NCBI GenBank assembly: GCA_003140935.1
Contig: PLLJ01000011.1
Location: 2,634 to 66,633, forward strand
DNA: 64,000 bases
DNA from: Candidatus Omnitrophota bacterium
Lineage (GTDB): Bacteria; Omnitrophota; Omnitrophia; Omnitrophales; Aquincolibacteriaceae
Direction: 5' to 3'
The notes under the pieces were generated by a model. The model worked only from the letters and a program-made list of their open reading frames with translations, did no database searches and was not told the DNA's origin. A program made the translations under genes and the position numbers. Numbering within the stretch: the stretch's first letter is position 1; each line of letters begins with the position of its first letter. Shown piece by piece: positions 4,318 to 47,956 of the stretch.

Positions 4318-5355
4318 ATGGCAAAGATGAAAGCTGTTGTTTTCAAAAAACATGGCACAACGATAGAACTCGAAGAAGCTTACGTTCCCATCCCGGAAAT
4401 CGGGAAAAAGGATGTCCTGGTCAAGGTCAAGGCTTGTGCGCTGAACCATTTGGATCTTTGGACGCTTGCGGGCATGCCCGGCATCAAGATCAGCATGCCG
4501 CACATTCTCGGTTGCGATATCGCGGGTGAGGTCGTAGAAAAAGGCAAAAAAGCTCACGGCATCCCGCTCCATAAACCCGTGATCGTCGCGCCCGGCATTT
4601 CCTGCGGTAAATGCGCTTACTGCAAATCGGGCTGGGACAGCCTTTGCGCCCATTATGAGATCGTCGGGTTTCAGAACAACGGCGGGTACGCGGAATATGT
4701 CAAGGTCCCCGCGCGGAACATCATTCCTATCACCGGTAATCTTGGCATGGAGTCCTGGGCCGCGGTGCCGCTGGTGTTCCTGACGGCGTGGCATATCCTC
4801 GTAACGCGGGCCGCTCTCGAGAAAAAAGAAACGGTGCTCATTCAGGCCGGCGGAAGCGGCATTGGCAGCGCGGCGATCCAGATCGCAAAACTCCTGGGAG
4901 CCCGGGTGATCACCACCGTAGGAAGCGAAGAAAAAGTCAAGCGGGCCAAAGCGCTCGGTGCGGACTTTGTCATTAATTACAAACTGAAAGATTTCCAAGC
5001 CGAAGTCATGCGCCTGACCCAAAGTGAGGGCGTCGACGTCCTTTTCGAACATATCGGAGGCCCCATATTCACCCAAAGCGTGCTGTGCCTCAAGAAAAAA
5101 GGCCGGATCGTCACCTGCGGCGCTACAGCAGGTCGCACTGTCAGTTTTGATCTGCGCTATCTTTACACACGCCAGCTTTCCGTCATCGGCTCTTACATGG
5201 GCGGCATTTCCGAGCTTCAGCGCATCGTCCGGCGCATTCAGGATGGTCGTTTGCGGCCCGTGATCGACCAGATATTCTCGTTGCGTGAAGCGCGCCAGGC
5301 CTTGAATCGCATGGCCTCCCGGGAGAATTTCGGGAAGATCATCCTCAAACCCTAG
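4318..5355 (+). CDS. zinc-type alcohol dehydrogenase / quinone oxidoreductase (MDR family)
   Basis: MAKMKAVVFKKHG...GCDIAGEV...GGSGIGSAAIQIAK Rossmann motif; RBS-like AAGGAG upstream. Confidence 0.85.
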   Translation: MAKMKAVVFKKHGTTIELEEAYVPIPEIGKKDVLVKVKACALNHLDLWTLAGMPGIKISMPHILGCDIAGEVVEKGKKAHGIPLHKPVIVAPGISCGKCAYCKSGWDSLCAHYEIVGFQNNGGYAEYVKVPARNIIPITGNLGMESWAAVPLVFLTAWHILVTRAALEKKETVLIQAGGSGIGSAAIQIAKLLGARVITTVGSEEKVKRAKALGADFVINYKLKDFQAEVMRLTQSEGVDVLFEHIGGPIFTQSVLCLKKKGRIVTCGATAGRTVSFDLRYLYTRQLSVIGSYMGGISELQRIVRRIQDGRLRPVIDQIFSLREARQALNRMASRENFGKIILKP

Positions 5356-6342: not shown

Positions 6343-7158
6343 TTACACCTTGGCGTCTTCGGTATCCGTTATTTTGAACGCTACGAACATATAGACCAAA
6401 TTGACCAGGATCATGACCACGAACGGCAATGGCAGCTTCCGGAGAGGCGTCATGATCTGAAGCCATGTCAGGGTGAATGACGCGGTCGTAGCAAAGCACG
6501 TGAGAGAAAAAATAGCTCCATAACGAAGTTTTTGCTTCCTCATCATGTTGAATAAAAGCCCGACAAGCGAATAAAGGAGATCCACGATCAGGAGGAAAAA
6601 GAAGAACAGGACGATCATCACGGGCGGAACGATCAAAAGCATCGTGCTTTTGATCACCTTAAAGAGACCTCCCACGACTGCACCGGTGATCCGGATCTTG
6701 GGCGGCAGCTGCTTATCCGTTTGGATCCCCGCCTTGGTAATATCCCGCTCTTCGATCTGCCCCGGCGCCCGCTTCATAAAAACTTTTGTCGATGTCACAA
6801 GCAAGGGGGCCTTGTCCATATCCGCTTCATTCGCGGATGTTTTAGTCATATCAAAAGCAACGAGCGGGCCATACTTGGGATGGGACAAAAGGGCGGTCGT
6901 CTGGCCATTCTCCAGAGAAATTCCCTCGGGCGTCCAGATCACGACCGGCATGGTTTTTTGAGCCCAGGAAACAAATTCATTTGCAACGGGCAACATCCGG
7001 CTCAGCATTAAAACCGTGATCAATACGCCAGCGATCACCGAAAGATAAAAAACATAAAGCACTCCCTTCCAAGCGGACCTTTTTGAGGCATCATGAAAAA
7101 CGCGCGGATGGAAAAGTGCGGTAACGGGAGCAAGCCAAAAAGAGAGAAGGTTATTCAT
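6343..7158 (-). CDS. hypothetical polytopic membrane protein (DUF1189-like)
   Basis: 271 aa with several TM segments; 8-nt overlap with greA stop. Confidence 0.55.
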   Translation of the reverse strand: MNNLLSFWLAPVTALFHPRVFHDASKRSAWKGVLYVFYLSVIAGVLITVLMLSRMLPVANEFVSWAQKTMPVVIWTPEGISLENGQTTALLSHPKYGPLVAFDMTKTSANEADMDKAPLLVTSTKVFMKRAPGQIEERDITKAGIQTDKQLPPKIRITGAVVGGLFKVIKSTMLLIVPPVMIVLFFFFLLIVDLLYSLVGLLFNMMRKQKLRYGAIFSLTCFATTASFTLTWLQIMTPLRKLPLPFVVMILVNLVYMFVAFKITDTEDAKV

Positions 7159-7627
7159 AGTGGATCTCCATGATTTTGAGTTTGATCTTCCCTGCCGGAA
7201 CTTGAATGACGGTTTCTTCGTTCAAAGATTTTCCCAGTAGGCCACGGCCGATCGGCGAGGTCACCGAGATCTTCCCTTCGTCAAAATTCGCTTCATCCTG
7301 AGAGACAAGTGTGTAATCAAAAATATCGCCGCTGTCGAGATTCTTCACTTTGACTTTGGCGCTCAAATAGGCTTTGTCCTGGGCAATATCCCCTTTGTCA
7401 AGAATGCGCGCGTTCGCGAGACGGGCTTCTAGCTGACCGATCCGGATCTCCAACTGGTGTTTGGCTTCTTTGGCGGTCTCCCAATCGGCATTCTCGCTGA
7501 GATCGCCATGCGCCCGGGCCTTTTCAAGCTGGTCCGCGACTTCGCGACGTTTCTTAGTCTTAAGAAAATTCAACTCCTCGTAAAGCTTGTCATAGCCTTG
7601 TTGCGTTAAGATCACTTTGTTGGTCAT
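7151..7627 (-). CDS. greA: transcription elongation factor GreA
   Basis: MTNKVILTQQGYDKLYEELNFL...coiled-coil N-domain and C-terminal FKBP-like domain; start placed at internal ATG 7627. Confidence 0.9.
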   Translation of the reverse strand: MTNKVILTQQGYDKLYEELNFLKTKKRREVADQLEKARAHGDLSENADWETAKEAKHQLEIRIGQLEARLANARILDKGDIAQDKAYLSAKVKVKNLDSGDIFDYTLVSQDEANFDEGKISVTSPIGRGLLGKSLNEETVIQVPAGKIKLKIMEIHYE

Positions 7628-7728
7628 TTTTGCCCCATGAGAGACAGGAAACACCTACAGCGCTTCCGTCTGTTTTGAAAACTCCGTTTAAAAAACGTCT
7701 GGTCCCTATCTTAAGCTTACGCGAATCT

Positions 7729-8811
7729 CTAGCGGAGCGAATAAGAACTATCCACCAAGCAAGGTTCAAACCCTGCATCCGTGGCACATCGGATCAGGTC
7801 GTCGGAACTTAACCCCTCGGGGGCACGACTCCCTGCTTCACGCATGACCTTTTCATGAAGATTTGTTCCGCCCACATCATCCGCGCCGAACGAAAGCGCG
7901 ACTTGAACGAACTTCAAATCCGTCGCCGAACCGTGAACTTTGATGTGAGAGATATTATCCAGAAGAAGTCTCGAAATAGAAAGCACTTTTAGGTCTAAAA
8001 AACCGCTTGTTCGTTCCATGCCCCGGAGCGCGTTATTTTCGGGATGATAGGCAAGCGGCACAAACGCATAAAATCCTTGCGTTTCATCCTGAAGCTCACG
8101 CAACTTCATAAGATGCGACACCCGTTGCTCATTGGTCTCGACGTGTCCGTAAAGCATGGTGGCGTTAGTTTTGATCCCCGCCTGATGCGCGACCCGGTGG
8201 ATCTCGATCCATGCTTCTCCCGATATTTTTCGGGGACAGATCTTGGCCCGCACCCCGGGATCAAAGATCTCAGCTCCACCACCCGGCATCCCGTCTAATC
8301 CGGCCTCTTTTAAGCGGCGCAAAACTTCAGCCCAGGAAAATCCCGACTGCTTGGTCATAAAATCGATTTCGGAAGCACTAAATGCTTTAATAAAAATTTC
8401 TTTCGGTAGCTGTCGTATGCGCCGTATCATTTCCAAAAAATAATCGAACTCAAGCGCGGGATTATGCCCCCCCACGATATGGACCTCGTTGATCTGCCAG
8501 CGATCGACCGCATCCCGGACTTTTTGTTCGATCTCATCCAGTGTCAGCGTGTAGGCGCCGGGCGCATCCGCATCGCGAGAAAAGGCGCAGAATTCGCAAC
8601 GGGTCGAGCAAATGTTTGTGGGATTGAGGTGAAGGTTCCGGGCATAAAAAGCATGCCGGCCATGCATCCGCTCGCGGACCTGATGCGCCATCCGGCCGAT
8701 CGCAAGAATATCCGTACTCTCAAAAAGCCGCACGCCGTCTTCAAAAGAAAGCCTTTCCTGATCCCGGACTTTTTGAAAGACATCCTTGATGAGATTTAAA
8801 GACCGATCCAT
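7729..8811 (-). CDS. radical SAM enzyme of the futalosine menaquinone pathway (MqnE/MqnC type)
   Basis: CSTRCEFCAF CxxxCxxC radical-SAM motif in a ~360 aa MqnC/MqnE/CofH-like architecture; MqnE vs MqnC not distinguishable by eye. Confidence 0.75.
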   Translation of the reverse strand: MDRSLNLIKDVFQKVRDQERLSFEDGVRLFESTDILAIGRMAHQVRERMHGRHAFYARNLHLNPTNICSTRCEFCAFSRDADAPGAYTLTLDEIEQKVRDAVDRWQINEVHIVGGHNPALEFDYFLEMIRRIRQLPKEIFIKAFSASEIDFMTKQSGFSWAEVLRRLKEAGLDGMPGGGAEIFDPGVRAKICPRKISGEAWIEIHRVAHQAGIKTNATMLYGHVETNEQRVSHLMKLRELQDETQGFYAFVPLAYHPENNALRGMERTSGFLDLKVLSISRLLLDNISHIKVHGSATDLKFVQVALSFGADDVGGTNLHEKVMREAGSRAPEGLSSDDLIRCATDAGFEPCLVDSSYSLR

Positions 8812-8820
8812 GGGAAATTT

Positions 8821-9909
8821 TTAGGCTTTGCGCTTCGTGCTTTGAGTTCTGCGTTTTTCAATTTCTTTGAAAAGTTCGTCAACGAGCTTATCCTCATCGA
8901 CCACGCGCTCCTGCTTGCCCGCTACATAAATCATGCCCTTTTGGGGGCCGCCTGTGATGGCGAAATCCGCCCCCTGTGCTTCACCGGGGCCGTTCACCGC
9001 ACATCCCATCACGGCGATGGTAAGGGGACCCGCGAGCTTCATCGCGCGCGCTTCCACTTCCTGAGCGAGTTTGGCGGTATCGATCTCGGTGCGCCCGCAA
9101 GTCGGACAAGAGATCACCCGCACCCCCTGACGAAGGTCCAAAGATTCAAGGATCATCTTCGCGACTTTGACCTCTTCAACGGGATCCGCGGTAAGCGACA
9201 CGCGGATCGTATCCCCGATCCCTTCCTGGAGAAGTGTCCCGATCCCGACCGCGTTATAAACACTGCCGCGGATGAGTGTCCCGGCCTCGGTGACGCCAAG
9301 ATGCAAGGGATAATCGAACTTTTGGCCCGCCAGGCGATACGCCTCGATCAAAGTCGGTACATCCGTGGTCTTAAGCGAGATCACGGTATCATGGAAATCC
9401 ATTGCCTCCAGGATCGCCACATGCCGGCGTGCACTTTCGACCAAGGCCTCGGCGGTGGGCCCGTATTTTTCCATCAGATCTTTCTCAAGCGACCCTGAAT
9501 TCACCCCGATGCGGATCGGGACGTGACACCGCTTGGCTTTTTCCACGACCTCGGCCACGCGGTCCTTGCCGCCGATATTGCCGGGATTCAGACGCAATTT
9601 GTCCACACCTTCGTCGATCGCCATCAAAGCAAAACGATAATTAAAATGAATATCCGCCACAAGCGGGATCTTGACCCTAGACTTGATCTTCCCGAGCGCT
9701 TTGACGTCCTCTTCGCCGGGACAGGCCACACGCACGATCTCGCAGCCGGATTCGACCAAGCGGTCGATCTGCTCGAGCGTTGCTTGCACGTTACGCGTCG
9801 GGACTTTGGTCATGGACTGGATACGGATCGGCTGGCCGTCACCGAGAATAAGATCGCCGACCTTGACGGCTCTTGTTCTTTTTCTTTGGATCACATTCGG
9901 CTTTTTCAT
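8821..9909 (-). CDS. ispG: 4-hydroxy-3-methylbut-2-enyl diphosphate synthase (GcpE)
   Basis: [26 protein letters not shown]...[11 protein letters not shown] typical IspG; start at internal ATG 9909 (MKKPNVIQ) which forms ATGA overlap with thiC stop. Confidence 0.9.
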
Positions 9910-11324
9910 TTTTTCTTTAAAACCCGCTCCGTTTTCCCCGCCTTGCCCCGCAGGCGAGGCTCGCCACTTCGTAGGCGGCCTATTTCCGTCAAACACTGCG
10001 AAAGATTCATAGCGCAGAATCCTTCCCCGCACATCGAACAATATTTTCCGTGCCGCGCTCCCCCTTCCGGAAGACCTTCATCGTGCATTTTCTTCGCATT
10101 CTCCGGATCGAGCGACAGGGCGTATTGCTTTTCCCAATCAAAATCAAATCGGGCCTTCGCGAGCGCGTCATCCCTCTTCCGGGCGCCCGGCCGATGGCGC
10201 GCAACGTCCGCAGCGTGCGCTGCGATCTTATAGGCGATCACGCCCTGTTTCACGTCATCGAGATTCGGAAGCCTCAGATGTTCGCACGGCGTCACGTAAC
10301 AAAGCATGGCCGCGCCCGCTTGAGCGGCGATCGCCGCACCGATCGCGGAGGTAATATGGTCATACCCCGGCGCAATGTCCGTCACGAGCGGACCCAATAC
10401 ATAAAAAGGCGCGCCGTGGCAAACTTTAATCTGACGTTCAATGTTCATGGGGATCTGGTCCATCGGCACGTGCCCCGGACCTTCCACCATCACCTGCACG
10501 TCCTGTTCCCAGGCCCGTAAGGTCAAAGCCCCGAGCGCATCCAATTCCGCGAATTGCGCTGCGTCACTCGCATCGGCGAGACACCCCGGACGCATCCCGT
10601 CCCCGAGACTGATCGTCACGTCGTATTTTTTACAGATCTCAAGCAGCCGGTCGAAGTGCGTAAAAAGAAAATTCTGCTTTTGATGGGCTTTGCACCAGCG
10701 CGCGAGAATCGCGCCGCCGCGGCTCACCACGCCCGTCACCCGGCTTTCGATGAGAGGCAGATGTTCTAACAACACTCCCGCATGGATCGTCATAAAATCC
10801 ACACCCTGCTGGGCTTGATGTTCGATCACTTCGAACATGATCTCCGGCGTTAAAGCCTCCGGTTTACCCTTCACCCGTTCGAGCGCTTCGTAGATCGGCA
10901 CGGTTCCCACCGGCACCGTGGTCTCACGGAGGATCGCTTCGCGCGTTTCATCCAGCTGTTTTCCGGTCGAAAGGTCCATCACGGTATCGGCTCCGAATTT
11001 GACCGCGAGTTTCACTTTCTTCACTTCCGCTTGAATGTTCGAACCTAAGGCGGAATTCCCGAGATTCGCGTTGATCTTGCAACGAACACTTATTCCGATC
11101 CCCACCGGCCGCAGGTCCCGGTGATTGATATTCGCACAGATCACAAGCCGGCCGGCCGCCACCTCCTCCCGGACAAGTTCCGGCGAAATCCCTTCCTCGA
11201 CCGCCACATGGTTCATTTCTCCCGTCGCGATCCCCTGACGGGCGTAGTGCATTTGGGAACGATTTGTATCTTTTTCCCGCTTAGCGATCCATTCGTCTCG
11301 AAATAACATGTTTTCCTTCATCAT
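9906..11324 (-). CDS. thiC: phosphomethylpyrimidine synthase
   Basis: Full-length ThiC homology incl. C-terminal CSMCGEGFC Fe-S motif; start chosen at ATG 11324 preceded by GAGG. Confidence 0.92.
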
Positions 11325-22133: not shown

Positions 22134-23161
22134 GTAGGAGCTTGATTGCCGGCAGGTGATATTTTCTTTTCGAGAATCTTCCCGCTCCGTTCGACCTGGA
22201 ATGTTTGTGTCGTTCCATCTGTTTGGGCCAGAATCGCACGATAATAGCCCACCCAACTGTCGAGCAGGAGGTTATTCTGTTTGCGCAGGATATCCCCCGG
22301 CAAAAATCCTTCCCGCGCTGCCGGAGAACCGGCGCGCACGCTTGTGATCTTAAACCGGAGTGTTTTGGGATCACGCTCCACATGAAATCCCATATGCGGG
22401 GCATCGGAATTGAGGAAGAAAATCCTGATAGGGAGTTCCAACTCCCCTTCCTTTCGAAGGACCATGAATTTCTTGAGAGATTCACCCGGAATATTCAAAA
22501 AGAATCCGAAAAGATTCCCGGGGGTCACTTCCTGACCCGAGATCTTGACGAGAACATCCCCATTACGAAGTCCCTGCTCATAGGCGAGCGTTGAGGGATC
22601 GGCCCCTGCGATGAAATAATGCGCCGTCTTGTCATCATAATGAAGGTCGCAACCCAGGATCACGCTTTTGATGGCCGGAAACTTCGCCTCCACAAGCCGC
22701 TCATTAATATTCTTGCCCAGCAATCCTTCGAACCTGCCGCGAGACCCGTCTTGCTTCCGGAAGCCCTTGGACGAAAGACCGGTTTTTCTTTTAAAATAAG
22801 CCCGGATTCCCACGACGGTCATGGTCGGATCTTTTTCCAAAACGCCGATCTCAAGCGCGCAAAACCCGCTTGAGAACAAGCTCGGAGCTTTGGCCCATTC
22901 TTTGTACTCTTTTTTATACAGGGGAAATGTCGCGGATTGGATATAACCCCGGGCTTTGTCGGCCGTCGCAATCGGGATCTTCTCGGCCTTCAACGTCGCG
23001 AGCGTGGCATTCCAGACCTCTTCAAAATTCCCCGGCAACGGGAATGAGCGGCCTTCGGAATTCGAGGAAGAGAGGGAAAATCCGGAAAAAAGAAGGTATA
23101 AAAAAAGCAGGCCGCAGAGTTCCCACGGCCTGCCTTTTTTAAAAGAAAGAGCGGATCCCAA
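22130..23161 (-). CDS. exported protein with two PDZ domains
   Basis: Signal peptide; two PDZ-like segments (GLRNGDVLVKISGQEV; GFLPGDILRKQNN) and no protease domain. Confidence 0.65.
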   Translation of the reverse strand: MGSALSFKKGRPWELCGLLFLYLLFSGFSLSSSNSEGRSFPLPGNFEEVWNATLATLKAEKIPIATADKARGYIQSATFPLYKKEYKEWAKAPSLFSSGFCALEIGVLEKDPTMTVVGIRAYFKRKTGLSSKGFRKQDGSRGRFEGLLGKNINERLVEAKFPAIKSVILGCDLHYDDKTAHYFIAGADPSTLAYEQGLRNGDVLVKISGQEVTPGNLFGFFLNIPGESLKKFMVLRKEGELELPIRIFFLNSDAPHMGFHVERDPKTLRFKITSVRAGSPAAREGFLPGDILRKQNNLLLDSWVGYYRAILAQTDGTTQTFQVERSGKILEKKISPAGNQAPT

Positions 23162-40944: not shown

Positions 40945-41184
40945 TTAGTAGTTAAAAAGGTCCCGGTGCGCAAATTTTTGTTCGGGAAGCGCGTTGTGCA
41001 AGGCGTTCAGGATCTTAGCCTTGGTCCGGGTTGTAAGACGCCTCCCCTTGCGCGCCTTTTGCACCACCTTGTGAGAAAGCTGCTCGGTCGAGGCCGCAAC
41101 AAGTGCATGGTTTGAAAGCCCGTGCTTGACCATAAGAGCGTCAAGAGGCTGCGGGCCAAGGTCGTTCGTTTCTTTGATCGTCAT
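40945..41184 (-). CDS. small basic hypothetical protein co-transcribed with rho
   Basis: 79-aa ORF starting with ATGA overlap on rho stop; K/R-rich centre (KARKGRRLTTRTKAK). Confidence 0.4.
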   Translation of the reverse strand: MTIKETNDLGPQPLDALMVKHGLSNHALVAASTEQLSHKVVQKARKGRRLTTRTKAKILNALHNALPEQKFAHRDLFNY

Positions 41185-42200
41185 TGTAACTTGCTCACGG
41201 CGGCAAGAAGGTCCTTGGTCTCAGGATATTTCTTGAGTTGTTCGATCAGCGCGCTGATCGCTTCGATGGGCTTAAGCCCGGCCAGGGCACGGCGTATCCG
41301 GCGCGCCGGTTCCAGCTCCTGGGACGTAAAAAGAAGTTCTTCCTTGCGCGTTCCGCTTTTGGATATATCCACTGCCGGATAAATGCGTTGATTCGAGATC
41401 TCACGCGATAGAAAGATCTCCATATTACCCGTTCCCTTGAATTCTTCAAAAATAAGCTGGTCCATGCGGCTCCCGGTATCCACCAGGATCGTCGCAAGGA
41501 TCGTCAGTGACCCTCCGTGTTCGATCTTACGAGCAGACCCGAAGATCCGCCGTGGCACTTCCATGGAACGCGCGTCCACGCCCCCGGAAAGGGTCCGGCC
41601 GCTGGAACGTTGCTCAGCGTTATGCACGCGCGCCAAACGGGTCAAAGAATCGACCAGGATCATCACATCCGCACCTGCCGAGACCTCGCGATACACTTGC
41701 TGCATGAGTTCCCGGGCGGTCTGGATATGATGGTCATAAGTCTGGTCGGACGAAGACCACCGGACCTCGGCCGTCACACTACGGCGAAAATCCGTAACTT
41801 CCTCCGGTCTTTCGTCGATCAAAAGACAATAAAGCTTCATCTCCGGCCGGCTTTTGGCGACGGCCTGGCAAAGATGCTTGAGAAACGTCGTTTTTCCGGA
41901 ACCCGGAGGAGCCACGATCAGCCCCCGCTGTCCCATGCCGATCGGAGTGATAAGATCCATGACGCGCATCGTAAGTTCCTTGGAGCCGTCTTCGAGATGG
42001 ATCCGTGGCGAAGGATCGACGGCCGTACTGGCAAAAAACTTTTGTTCATCTTCGGCGATCACGCGTCGGGGTTCCCCATGCGGTGGCCGGTGAGAAGGAC
42101 GATGGGAATGAGTGCCTCGGCTTGGGTGCCGTTCGCTGCGATACCTTGAATCGGTATTGGGACCACGCCCTGAACGCTCTCGGTGTTCAAAGTTTCTCAT
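41181..42200 (-). CDS. rho: transcription termination factor Rho lacking the canonical N-terminal RNA-binding domain
   Basis: C-terminal RecA-like ATPase domain collinear with E. coli Rho residues ~140-419 (Walker A, Q-loop, R-loop); only ~55 aa of Arg/Ser/His-rich sequence precede it; ATG 42200 forms ATGA overlap with ABC-F stop. Confidence 0.85.
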   Translation of the reverse strand: MRNFEHRERSGRGPNTDSRYRSERHPSRGTHSHRPSHRPPHGEPRRVIAEDEQKFFASTAVDPSPRIHLEDGSKELTMRVMDLITPIGMGQRGLIVAPPGSGKTTFLKHLCQAVAKSRPEMKLYCLLIDERPEEVTDFRRSVTAEVRWSSSDQTYDHHIQTARELMQQVYREVSAGADVMILVDSLTRLARVHNAEQRSSGRTLSGGVDARSMEVPRRIFGSARKIEHGGSLTILATILVDTGSRMDQLIFEEFKGTGNMEIFLSREISNQRIYPAVDISKSGTRKEELLFTSQELEPARRIRRALAGLKPIEAISALIEQLKKYPETKDLLAAVSKLQ

Positions 42201-44005
42201 GCTTGAAGTTTCCTCATTTTCTTTTCCAAAGAATTCCATTCCGCCTCGGCAGCTTCGATCTGGATTTGCAATTCTTTCAAATGCACATTGCGCTCCTTGG
42301 AAAAATGGAGTGGGTTTTTCGCCATCTCCTCCAAGACTTTGTTCCGTTCCTCTGTGAAATGCCGCGCGCGTCCTTCGGCTTTTTCCATGCTCTTGCGGAG
42401 CTTCGCAAGCTCGGCCTTGTGCTCGTTCTTCCTAGGCTGCTGAATTTCGACAGGGGGCTTGGAAGCCTTATCGGGGGAAGACGCCGATACGTTATTTTCA
42501 TCGCTGTCTTCTTCCTCGCCCCGGGCCACCTGCTCCAGGTGATAAACATAATCCTCATAGCTTCCGGGGTAGTGCAGGATACGGCCTTTCTTCACTTCGA
42601 GAATGCTTGTCGCCAGAAGATTGACAAAAGTCCGGTCATGGCTGATGAAAAGCACGGTGCCGGAAAAAGATTTGAGTGCGCGACCCAAAGCTTCCACCGT
42701 TTCGAAATCCAAGTGGTTCGTCGGCTCATCGAGAAGCAGGACATGGCTCTTGGAAAGAAGCAGTCCGGCCAGAACGAGACGCGCCCGTTCCCCGCCGCTT
42801 AGAACCTTCACTTTTTTTGAAACATCATCTCCTTTGAAAAGAAAACACCCGGCCATGTTCAGCACATCCTGATTGCTGACCCCCGCCGCGCTTTCGCGCG
42901 AGAGATAAGTATAAATATCATCTTCCGGGTCAAGTACTGCAAAAACATGCTGGGCGTAATATGCCACTTTAAGTCCGGTTCCCCAGCGAAAACTGCCCCC
43001 TTTGGGCGCAAGATCCCCGGCAAGCGTCCTGAGAAAGGTCGTTTTCCCCTCACCGTTATTGCCGAGCACCGCGACATGCTTTCCCCGGTCGATCTCGACT
43101 TGGATCCCGCGCGCAATGTCCTTTTCAGGATAACCGATGACAAGGTCTTCACAACTGACCGCAACTCCCGCCTTCGGCTCCACGGGCGGGATATAGATCT
43201 TCACCGTACTCATGGGATGCGCGATCTCGATCGTTTTGAGTTTTGCGAGTTGTTTCATTTTCGATTGCGCGCGCGTCGCCGTGGAGGCCTTCGCCTTAAA
43301 CCGGTCAATGAAGGTCTGGAGTTGTTCCCGTTTCTTATCAAGACCACGGTTGTAAGCCTGCTTCTGGGCGAGTTGCTCCTCCTTGAATTCGAAATACTCT
43401 TCGATATCCCCGGGGAAAAGAACAAGCCCTCCGTTCTCGACCTCAAGCGTATGGTCGCAAGTTCGCTTTAGGAATTCCCGGTCGTGGGAGACGACCAGAT
43501 ATCCACCTTTGAAATTAAGCAAAAAATTTTCCAAAAGGATCAACGTGCTTAAATCCAAATAATTGCTGGGCTCGTCAAGGATCAGGAAATTAGGGTCGCC
43601 CAAAAGCATCGCCGCAAGCTTCACACGCGTCTGGAAACCTCCCGGAAGATTCCGTACGGATTCTTCAAGGATCTCATTTTTGAGCTGGAACCGCGCGGCG
43701 ATCTGCCCGCACTCCCAATGCTCACTCCGCGTGGTGCGCATCAGGAAATCCACCACCCGCTCTCCCGGCTTGAACGTATCATGCTGCTCGAGATAGGAAA
43801 GACGGAGCGCCGTATTACGCGTGATGGTCCCGCTATCCGCCGATTCGTGCCCGGTGATGATGCGGCAAAGCGTGGATTTGCCGGCCCCGTTGCGGCCGAT
43901 CACACCGACCTTCTGATCGTCCCCGAATGACGCGCTGGCGTTATCGAGGATCGTCACGGCGCCATAGGCCTTGTGGAGTTCATTGACTTGCAAAAGAACT
44001 GTCAT
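42197..44005 (-). CDS. ABC-F family ATPase (two tandem ABC domains, ribosome-associated type)
   Basis: Two Walker A/ABC signature sets (GRNGAGKST, LSGGERARL) with inter-domain linker and C-terminal coiled coil, no TM domain. Confidence 0.88.
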   Translation of the reverse strand: MTVLLQVNELHKAYGAVTILDNASASFGDDQKVGVIGRNGAGKSTLCRIITGHESADSGTITRNTALRLSYLEQHDTFKPGERVVDFLMRTTRSEHWECGQIAARFQLKNEILEESVRNLPGGFQTRVKLAAMLLGDPNFLILDEPSNYLDLSTLILLENFLLNFKGGYLVVSHDREFLKRTCDHTLEVENGGLVLFPGDIEEYFEFKEEQLAQKQAYNRGLDKKREQLQTFIDRFKAKASTATRAQSKMKQLAKLKTIEIAHPMSTVKIYIPPVEPKAGVAVSCEDLVIGYPEKDIARGIQVEIDRGKHVAVLGNNGEGKTTFLRTLAGDLAPKGGSFRWGTGLKVAYYAQHVFAVLDPEDDIYTYLSRESAAGVSNQDVLNMAGCFLFKGDDVSKKVKVLSGGERARLVLAGLLLSKSHVLLLDEPTNHLDFETVEALGRALKSFSGTVLFISHDRTFVNLLATSILEVKKGRILHYPGSYEDYVYHLEQVARGEEEDSDENNVSASSPDKASKPPVEIQQPRKNEHKAELAKLRKSMEKAEGRARHFTEERNKVLEEMAKNPLHFSKERNVHLKELQIQIEAAEAEWNSLEKKMRKLQA

Positions 44006-45210: not shown

Positions 45211-45309
45211 GAATAGCTCCTATTACGGACACAAAGGTCACGAACCGCTTCCGAAGGGTTAACTCAGGATGAGACGCCGCAACCCCGCAAAATCAATAGT
45301 CGCGCCGTG

Positions 45310-46749
45310 CTAGTACTTATAATGCTCGGGCTTGTAGGGGCCATCGAAAGGAACATCCAGATACTTGGATTGCTTTTTCGTCAGCCTTGTGAGCTTGGCG
45401 CCCAGTTTGTCCAAATGGAGCCGGGCCACTTCTTCGTCGAGCTTCTTTTCAAGACGGTAAACACCGGGCTTTTTAGGGTTCATCACCAGATCGATCTGCG
45501 CGAGTGTCTGATTCGTGAAGGAGTTCGACATCACAAAGCTCGGATGGCCTGTAGCACAGCCAAGGTTCACGAGACGGCCCTCCGCGAGCAGAATGATCGA
45601 ATGCCCGTCCGGAAAAATATACTTATCGACCTGCGGTTTGATATTGATCTTTTTGATGCCGGGCCATTTTTGAAGTTGAGCGACCTGGATCTCATTATCA
45701 AAGTGTCCGATGTTGCAAACGATGGACTCGTCCTTCATCTTGGACATGTGTTCGGCCGTGATGACATCGATATTGCCCGTCGTGGTCACATAGATATCCC
45801 CGATATCAAGCACGTCCTCCAGTCGCGCGACCTGAAAACCGGCCATCGTCGCCTGAAGCGCGCAGATTGGATCAATCTCGGTCACGATGATGCGAGCTCC
45901 GAAACCATGCATAGCCTGGGCGCTGCCTTTGCCCACGTCCCCGTAGCCCAACACCACGGCGACCTTGCCCGCGATCATCACATCCGTCGCACGTTTGATG
46001 CCGTCCGCCAGGGATTCGCGACATCCGTAGAGATTATCGAATTTGGATTTGGTCACAGAATCGTTCACGTTGATCGCCGGGACCAGAAGCTTTCCCTTTT
46101 CCTGCATTTTATACAGGCGATGAACGCCGGTCGTCGTTTCCTCGGAAACGCCTTCCCATTCCTTGACCACCCCGTGCCATTTCTTAGGATCGTTCTTCAT
46201 GACCTTCTTCAGGATCTTGAAAAGTTCGATCTCGTCCTGAGTGTCGACCTTTTTGTCGAGGATCTTCGGATCCTTCTCTGCGTCATAACCCAAATGGATC
46301 ATGAGCGTCGCATCGCCCCCGTCATCCACGATAAGATTCGGGCCCTTGCCCCCTGGAAAGTTGAGCGCCTGAAGCGTGCACCACCAATATTCCTCCAAGG
46401 TCTCCCCCTTCCACGCGAATACCGGAATGCCCTTCACCGCCAAAGCGGCCGCGGCATGGTCTTGTGTGGAAAAAATATTGCAGGAACACCAACGGATATC
46501 GGCCCCGAGCTCGATCAAAGTCTCGATCAGGACTGCGGTCTGGATCGTCATGTGAAGACTGCCCATGATCCGCTTACCCCTAAGAGGTTTCTGTGGCCCG
46601 TACTTCTTGCGGGTCGCCATCAGCCCCGGCATTTCCTTCTCGGCCATATCGAGTTCTTTACGGCCCCAGTCGGCAAGCGAAAGGTCCGCGACCTTGAAAT
46701 CATTTTTCACTTTGAGAGCTGGCACTTTTTTTTGGTTTTTTTTCGTCAT
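45310..46749 (-). CDS. ahcY: adenosylhomocysteinase
   Basis: Full-length SAH hydrolase homology incl. NAD-binding domain; start at ATG 46749. Confidence 0.92.
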
Positions 46750-46765
46750 GGTCTTTTCTTTTAAG

Positions 46766-47956
46766 TTAAGCTGCACAGGTGACCTTGCTGCAACCGCAGT
46801 TATCTTTGAGTTTTAGTGCTTTTCGGAGTTGATCGACCGCATCCGTTTTTTCCCACGTAAAACCGGCTTCCGAACGGCCAAAATGCCCGTATGCGGCGGT
46901 TTTATTATAGATGGGACGGCGAAGATCCAAAGCCGCGATGATGCCTTTAGGCGTAAAATCAAAAACTTTCCGGACCGCTGCCACGATCTCGTCGTTGTCG
47001 AGCTTGCTGGTCCCGAATGTTTCCACGCGGATCGAAACAGGTTCTGCCACGCCGATCGCGTAGGAAACCTGGATCTCACAACGCTTGGCGATGCCGGCTG
47101 CGACGATATTTTTTGCAACATAACGGGCAAAATACGCGGCCGAGCGATCCACTTTGGAAGGATCCTTGCCGCTGAACGCACCGCCCCCGTGACGGCCCAT
47201 GCCGCCATAGGTGTCGACGATGATCTTGCGGCCCGTAAGACCCGTGTCTCCATGCGGCCCGCCTACCTCGAAACGTCCAGTCGGATTGATAAAGATCTTG
47301 GTGTTCTTATCTATTAAATTAGCTGGGATGACCTTCTTGATGACCTTTTCAGTCAGGTCCTTGGTGATCGTCGGAAGCGTCACATCGCCGTCATGCTGGG
47401 AGCTCACCACCACGGCATCGACGCGCACCGGCACATCGTTGCTGTCATATTCCACTGTGACCTGGCTCTTCGAATCCGGCCGGAGATACTTGATCTTGCC
47501 GCTTTTGCGAACAGCGGTCAAATAACGGACGAGTTTTTGGGCAAGCATGATCGGAAGCGGCATAAGCTCTTTCGTCTCATTTGACGCAAACCCGAACATC
47601 ATGCCCTGGTCCCCGGCGCCGCCTGTATCCACGCCCATCGCGATATCGGGTGATTGGGTATGAAGTGCGATATCCACCCGGCAGGTCTTATAATCGAACC
47701 CGATCTTGGGATCCACATAACCGATTTTTTGGATGACGTTTCGCGCGACCTTTTCGGCGTCGACCTTGGTTTTGCTCGTGATCTCACCGGCAATGGTCAA
47801 GCGGTCGGTCGTGGCAAGGCATTCGCAGGCCACACGCGATGCGGGATCTCCCGCGAGATACGCGTCCAGGATCGCGTCCGAAACCTGGTCGCAAACCTTG
47901 TCCGGATGACCTTCGGAAACAGATTCAGAGGTGAAGAAATAATGCCCTTTTTTCAT
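46766..47956 (-). CDS. metK: S-adenosylmethionine synthetase
   Basis: [25 protein letters not shown] and GGGAFSGKD motifs. Confidence 0.95.

Follow-up and report, generated by a model that had tools for sequence, protein, structure and literature searches.

Rho in its canonical form (the E. coli type; NF006886/TIGR00767; PDB 1PV4, 3ICE and 5JJI) places an N-terminal domain of about 130 amino acids (aa), made up of the Rho_N helix bundle and an OB fold, ahead of a linker and a RecA-type C-terminal domain. Current models of Rho begin with the crown of N-terminal OB folds on C-rich rut RNA, and it is a matter of continuing debate whether loading is RNA-first or polymerase-first (review PMC12360218). 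Rho types 1-4 were set out in a 2024 survey (PMC11347177), in which type 4, like the earlier group B, is without the helix bundle only; the survey sets aside as non-functional the single-domain 'Rho-like' sequences that it counted in 421 species, and its main text gives no description of them. Here we describe a rho gene in a 64,000-nucleotide stretch of a Candidatus Omnitrophota genome (contig PLLJ01000011.1, positions 2,634 to 66,633; hereafter the window, in whose coordinates all features are given). The gene lies on the minus strand at 41181..42200 and encodes 339 aa plus stop (delimited from the open reading frame (ORF) list, the sequence, NF006886 and AlphaFold). Its product shares the linker and C-terminal domain with canonical Rho and carries a 53-aa basic tail where the N-terminal domain would be. 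Our analysis confirms that this Rho without an N-terminal domain is real and not a truncation artefact, and that the form is conserved across Omnitrophota; we read the gene as intact and vertically inherited. A conserved Rho that has no crown is a natural test case for models of Rho loading.

A preliminary description of this locus, made from the sequence alone, had reported that the protein aligns with E. coli Rho only from the linker to the C terminus and that both the helix bundle and the OB fold are absent, and the profile searches and alignments that we ran agree on both points. In Pfam, PF00006 was the sole match (70 bits), and neither Rho_N (PF07498) nor Rho_RNA_bind (PF07497) matched any part of the rho protein, its first 100 residues included, even at E<=1; the same search does detect PF07497 in 375-aa relatives. 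The NCBIfam Rho equivalog NF006886 scored 376.8 bits against a cutoff of 315 while covering only model positions 128-412 of 413. A tblastn search with E. coli Rho, the query sequence agreeing with the PDB alignments, gave a match limited to residues 127-413 at 47% identity, and with residues 1-130 of the same query all frames of the 64-kb window were without a match (best E 2.4). Solved Rho structures likewise all align to the window protein from about residue 137 on (PDB phmmer, Foldseek). Several linker positions ahead of the ATPase core are conserved (F55, P63, P65, R66, L69 and E70), so that the start of the protein falls almost exactly where the N-terminal domain of Rho gives way to the C-terminal one.

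Downstream of that boundary, the linker and RecA-type ATPase domain (residues 54-339; 41184..42041, minus strand, as are all parts of the gene) correspond approximately to E. coli Rho 131-419 by alignment, PDB phmmer and Foldseek. The Walker A motif APPGSGKT (residues 97-104; 41889..41912) retains K103 and T104, the equivalents of E. coli K184 and T185, in 120/120 homologues and has Gly at the position of E. coli K181. The arginine finger R285 (E. coli R366; 41346..41348) is just as invariant, as are the equivalents of E. coli E211 (the catalytic Glu), R212 (the Arg valve) and D265 (Walker B), and the equivalents of the bicyclomycin-pocket residues S266 and G337 do not vary among the 120 homologues. 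Both loops of the secondary, central-channel RNA site could be placed by homologue alignment. The Q-loop (residues 195-209, AEQRSSGRTLSGGVD; 41574..41618) has the conserved core SGRTLSGGVD, with S199, G201, R202, T203, S205, G206, G207 and D209 invariant and conservative changes relative to E. coli at K283R and T286S; the R-loop (residues 243-250, GSRMDQLI; 41451..41474) has Arg instead of E. coli K326 in 117/120 homologues.

An AlphaFold monomer model built on 80 homologues (mean predicted local distance difference test (pLDDT) score 88) shows residues 50-339 as a confident RecA-like domain, which can be overlaid on the C-terminal domain of E. coli Rho with a root-mean-square deviation of 1.6 A over about 285 columns; the Q-loop scores lower, at a pLDDT of about 71-73, as expected of a loop. 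All top Foldseek matches of the model are Rho, and the Rho profile outscores those of other ATPase families by 377 bits to at most 79. PHROGs and PADLOC gave no meaningful family match for the protein, the only resemblance being a weak P-loop one to mad8. The C-terminal domain is under strong purifying selection. With all known power motifs and central-channel RNA-grip motifs kept, the motor looks, from its sequence, fully functional.

The tail (residues 1-53; 42042..42200) is basic and rich in Arg, Pro, Ser and His, begins with MRNF and ends in an acidic EDE, as delimited from the AlphaFold model and 100 homologue tails. The preliminary description had counted about 55 Arg/Ser/His/Pro-rich residues upstream of the conserved part and supposed an Arg-rich, disordered tail; the quoted tail is correct, with 53 residues before the linker, and structure prediction places residues 1 to about 45 at a pLDDT <50 with no secondary structure. 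Across the 100 homologue tails of at least 30 aa, the median length is 43 aa and the composition departs markedly from that of the ATPase domain (R 18.6% against 9.3%, P 12.4% against 4.4%, S 9.9% against 7.8%, H 9.7% against 1.9%), and the net charge runs from +1 to +9, always positive even with His uncounted. Identity to the window protein is 26% in the tail and 77% in the ATPase domain, and sequence conservation in the tail is confined to M-[RK]-x-[FY] at its N terminus and an acidic patch immediately ahead of the linker. Such a pattern, in which composition and charge are kept while sequence drifts, fits a functional disordered region.

The placement of the tail depends on the start codon. 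From its first ATG the ORF spans 41181..42239 and 352 aa; we place the start almost certainly at ATG 42200, because this codon overlaps the stop of the upstream gene in an ATGA, follows a GAGGA (42211..42215, 10 nucleotides 5' of the ATG) and opens the M-[RK]-x-[FY] motif shared with homologues, which begins 67/100 homologue tails even where the upstream sequence differs. The ATGA overlap lies at 42197..42200 (ATG 42200..42198, TGA 42199..42197; read from the sequence), and couples rho to a complete gene for a 602-aa ABC-F ATPase (42197..44005, minus strand; two ABC_tran domains and ABC_tran_Xtn in Pfam) directly 5' of it. This coupling had been proposed in the preliminary description together with the argument that it leaves no space for a missing N-terminal part, and the argument is borne out: the complete ABC-F gene abuts the rho start, and no hidden frame encodes such a part.

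These observations bear on the simplest alternative, that the gene is truncated, that the assembly is frameshifted, or that the locus is a pseudogene remnant of a full-length rho. Apparent fragments of this kind occur among the wider Rho relatives that we collected, where the representatives P0161 and P0169 have apparent N-terminal truncations, are 69-77% identical to full-length Rho and bear odd C-terminal extensions. At the Omnitrophota locus, however, an upstream frameshift concealing an N-terminal domain was looked for and none was found; the ABC-F protein is conserved to its last residue, aligning with orthologues over residues 1-601 of 602 in at least 15 loci, and no remnant of an N-terminal domain occurs in any frame. 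The same architecture and start motif recur in more than 100 independent assemblies and in about 18 species genomes, and the purifying selection noted above acts on the C-terminal domain, so that an artefact is effectively refuted.

We searched 5.8 billion proteins and considered the best 120 matches, all of which are 285-380 aa long with PF00006 as their only domain; among those with an organism name, nearly all are from Candidatus Omnitrophota/Omnitrophica. A scan of GTDB species genomes, the comparison with related taxa that the preliminary description had recommended, recovered about 18 Omnitrophota loci with the same architecture at 63-94% identity. The N-terminal domain is missing from all Omnitrophota-labelled matches that we saw and from the Rho encoded at each of the Omnitrophota species loci. 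For the same genome pair, rho has diverged to 72% identity, the ABC-F gene to 74% and a neighbouring Fe-alcohol dehydrogenase gene to 73%. The order of ABC-F, rho and a downstream gene for a 79-aa protein is largely kept in relatives whose Rho is at least 72% identical and is lost in more distant ones. One apparent rho-helix-turn-helix (HTH) fusion (L016, 5992..7230) proved to be an artefact of a masked run of N between two genes. A search of the literature on Omnitrophota Rho found nothing relevant.

Proteins of similar design occur outside the phylum. Among 1.84 billion representatives clustered at 50% identity we found 7361 Rho relatives; the Omnitrophota family forms about two clusters, and most of the other top representatives, about 50% identical, are long Rho proteins that carry N-terminal insertions. 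Several other clusters have only a low-complexity tail, with no OB fold, ahead of the Rho C-terminal domain: in P0125 this domain follows an 83-aa basic tail with a net charge of +15; P0136 and P0271, both from Hydrogenedentes, have an Arg-rich tail and no OB fold (P0136, net +11); P0142 and P0143 have basic low-complexity tails, each of net +10; P0192 has a Gly/Gln/His/Arg-rich tail; and P0131, from Sericytochromatia, has a tail of 14 aa. The P0143 cluster is located on contigs of 4.4-4.9 Mb. Cyanobacteria, to which Sericytochromatia are related, are not known to carry Rho. The nearest C-terminal-domain neighbours of P0125, P0136 and P0142 are full-length Rho proteins, and independent origins are therefore suggested, which in turn suggests that the design of a disordered tail on a motor evolved repeatedly. 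The recurrence of a basic tail on a motor in unrelated lineages points to a general evolutionary route.

From these findings we propose that the Omnitrophota protein is an RNA translocase and terminator of the Rho type, a hexamer that loads RNA in the absence of a primary binding site and uses its tails as tethers, a reading to which we assign an even chance of being correct. The C-terminal domain would assemble into a hexameric ring, which would translocate 5' to 3' along RNA at the expense of ATP and terminate transcription as Rho does. Loading would differ, in that no OB-fold primary site is present to recognise C-rich rut RNA; the positively charged tails, six to a ring, would most likely act as multivalent, sequence-unspecific tethers that feed RNA into the open ring, and recruitment by RNA polymerase or NusG possibly helps. 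The tail would in this way take over RNA capture from the OB fold. We favour this mechanism because the motor and the secondary RNA site are intact, the charge of the tail is kept, the design recurs in independent lineages, and a precedent is reported for Mycobacterium tuberculosis Rho (PMC13650167). If this protein is the sole Rho in the cell, a Rho motor can be loaded in the absence of a primary binding site, and for this a charged disordered tail may suffice; if the same is true phylum-wide, rut recognition by an OB fold would be dispensable for the core job of Rho. The broader claim, that the Omnitrophota, probably together with a few further uncultured lineages such as Hydrogenedentes and Sericytochromatia, terminate transcription by means of a Rho without a primary site, with RNA captured by the tail or delivered by RNA polymerase or NusG, we put forward tentatively, as possible and somewhat doubtful.

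Whether the protein is the sole Rho in the cell is the point on which the proposal is most exposed, and several observations weigh against the proposal. In cultured bacteria a short Rho is mostly present as a second copy, and hetero-hexamers have been proposed for such forms (PMC11347177). The score against TIGR00767 (360.9 bits) falls below the cutoff of 509.45. The C-terminal domain of the window protein is 48-55% identical to those of full-length Rho proteins (median 50%), whereas that of E. coli reaches 60% against the same set, so that it has diverged somewhat further than is typical of a canonical Rho. Neighbour-joining analysis of the C-terminal domain places the Omnitrophota proteins together with two from Gammaproteobacteria and with the representative clusters P0121 and P0122 (82/200 bootstraps), a group that includes the Sericytochromatia protein receives 158/200, and the next neighbours are other short forms rather than canonical Rho. 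The two gammaproteobacterial proteins also have no N-terminal domain and, at 65% identity each, are the nearest relatives of the window protein outside the phylum. That of Marinobacter sp. BW6 (331 aa; L023, 5899..6894) is chromosomal and adjoins a ParE-like toxin gene and other accessory-looking genes, and that of Spartinivicinus ruber (319 aa; L085, 5917..6876) lies on plasmid pB, a phage-plasmid, with holin, terminase and capsid genes as its neighbours; in both proteins a short Lys/Arg-rich N terminus leads into an acidic stretch. In IMG/VR only the Spartinivicinus element itself was found. Because canonical rho is, to our knowledge, near-universal in Gammaproteobacteria, these copies are probably extra, horizontally moving accessory genes, and their setting suggests a possibly phage-serving role.

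Alternatively, the Omnitrophota gene could be an accessory paralogue, with a canonical Rho encoded elsewhere in the genome; the short protein might then enter mixed hexamers, where it would either rely in trans on the RNA-binding domains of its partners or lower Rho activity, or might serve a subset of targets. We consider this unlikely, though the tree, the divergence of the domain, the mobile relatives and the second copies of cultured bacteria all lend it substance. No N-terminal-domain signal occurs in the 64-kb window, and no full-length Omnitrophota Rho surfaced in our searches for relatives, which were not designed to find one. The gene also lies among housekeeping genes and diverges about as fast as those next to it. 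Shared synteny with the rho loci of other phyla, sought as an argument for orthology, was not found. The nearest full-length representative, P0124, was considered as a canonical Omnitrophota Rho and rejected, its contig having 69% GC and low identity to Omnitrophota genes, and the contigs of P0188 and P0192 were uninformative as leads to one. P0124 itself (694 aa; L086, 10001..12085), the top-scoring full-length representative, has about 400 aa of Arg/Pro/Asp-rich disordered sequence before its OB fold and is an extreme case among the known N-terminal insertions of Rho.

A second alternative is that the protein is a Rho-derived ring translocase that no longer terminates transcription and acts instead in RNA remodelling or R-loop clearing, perhaps in connection with the co-transcribed ABC-F translation factor. 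The specificity domain has been lost, translational coupling to ABC-F is kept in closer relatives, and in the distant locus L022 the rho gene is followed by two DEAD-box helicase genes (7009..8346 and 9514..10707), an association that is not conserved. Linkage to ABC-F, however, is absent in the distant Omnitrophota loci L018, L021 and L022, and in L003 a DUF981 gene sits between the two. The Rho-specific motifs, the bicyclomycin-pocket residues among them, are all invariant, and the canonical Rho model is the best match by far, all of which makes a loss of the termination function distinctly improbable in our judgement, and we retain a terminating, tail-tethered Rho as the preferred reading. 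In the distant locus L021 the rho gene is followed by a gene for an RGG-repeat-rich 128-aa protein (4667..5053); like the helicase genes of L022 this neighbour is RNA-related, and again the association is not conserved.

The best-matching models for the ABC-F protein are those of EttA, Uup and the ribosomal-protection ABC-F proteins, and its alignment reaches the end of the first two. Against the ribosomal-protection model it scores 378.2, just under the cutoff of 380, and it has a C-terminal coiled-coil-like extension. Together with rho it belongs to a co-directional array on the minus strand that runs metK, ahcY, the Fe-alcohol dehydrogenase gene, ABC-F, rho, the 79-aa gene, mdh, thiS, thiG and thiH. 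Opposite ahcY (45310..46776, minus strand), a 485-aa antisense ORF (45307..46764, plus strand) is nearly coextensive with the gene and is probably a chance product of codon usage.

The gene for the 79-aa protein (40945..41184, minus strand) begins in an ATGA overlap with the rho stop (41181..41184), and its product was considered as a split-off RNA-binding subunit. This candidate was rejected: the protein is predicted to have a five-helix XRE-like HTH fold, with no OB or cold-shock fold, and it accompanies rho only in closer relatives. Its model (pLDDT 82) weakly resembles lambda-repressor-like HTH proteins, the best PDB match being C.AhdI (TM 0.58-0.67, E 0.19). The 313 homologues that we found all come from Omnitrophota, and Pfam assigns no domain to any of them; the family is marked by the invariant basic motif KxRxGxRL.

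Intrinsic-terminator-like motifs, consisting of a hairpin and a U-tract, are not enriched over shuffled sequence in the window (found/expected 23/26.7, 28/26.4 and 29/26.0), and from 39.5 to 47.2 kb the coding strand is free of them. These counts give a weak hint, compatible with the proposed mechanism, that termination does not rest mainly on canonical intrinsic terminators. A strong 20-bp hairpin at 23099..23141, with runs of A and T on its flanks, looks like a bidirectional terminator.

Set against the forms of Rho already described, the window protein differs from each in what it has lost or kept. Type 4 and group B proteins are also shortened at the N terminus, have a related C-terminal domain and are among the closest neighbours in the tree; they retain the OB fold, whereas the window Rho has no RNA-binding domain and so falls outside the type 4 definition (PMC11347177). 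The paralog_Rho2 model NF041509, the 'Rho short form', likewise spans canonical positions 51-413 and thus an OB fold and a C-terminal domain; the window protein matches only its positions 76-359 (of 360), its 320.8 bits stay below the cutoff of 628, and it is thus shorter even than this short form. Loci from Desulfobacterales, Anaerolineales and Pirellulales encode Rho proteins of about 375 aa that match PF07497. By definition, the ATPase domain alone places the window protein in the 'Rho-like' class, which is characterised by a single Rho domain; unlike that class as the survey presents it, the Omnitrophota form is phylum-wide and strongly conserved and carries a conserved basic tail, and Omnitrophota have 0 occurrences in the main text of the survey (PMC11347177). 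Annotation is affected accordingly, in that pipelines label these proteins 'Rho' and domain-based surveys drop them as non-functional 'Rho-like'.

The closest functional analogies are to disordered RNA-recruiting regions. In bacterial DEAD-box RNA helicases, an Arg-rich unstructured extension on a RecA-type motor tethers RNA without sequence specificity; those enzymes are monomeric or dimeric members of superfamily SF2, whereas Rho is a hexameric ring. In the actinobacterial Rho of M. tuberculosis a disordered insertion, the NID, is reported to be required for productive RNA recruitment (PMC13650167), but it is inserted in an N-terminal domain that keeps its OB fold. In the window Rho, by comparison, the disordered tail is the sole part upstream of the motor. 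In the published accounts that we examined, no Rho type regarded as functional is as reduced as this protein.

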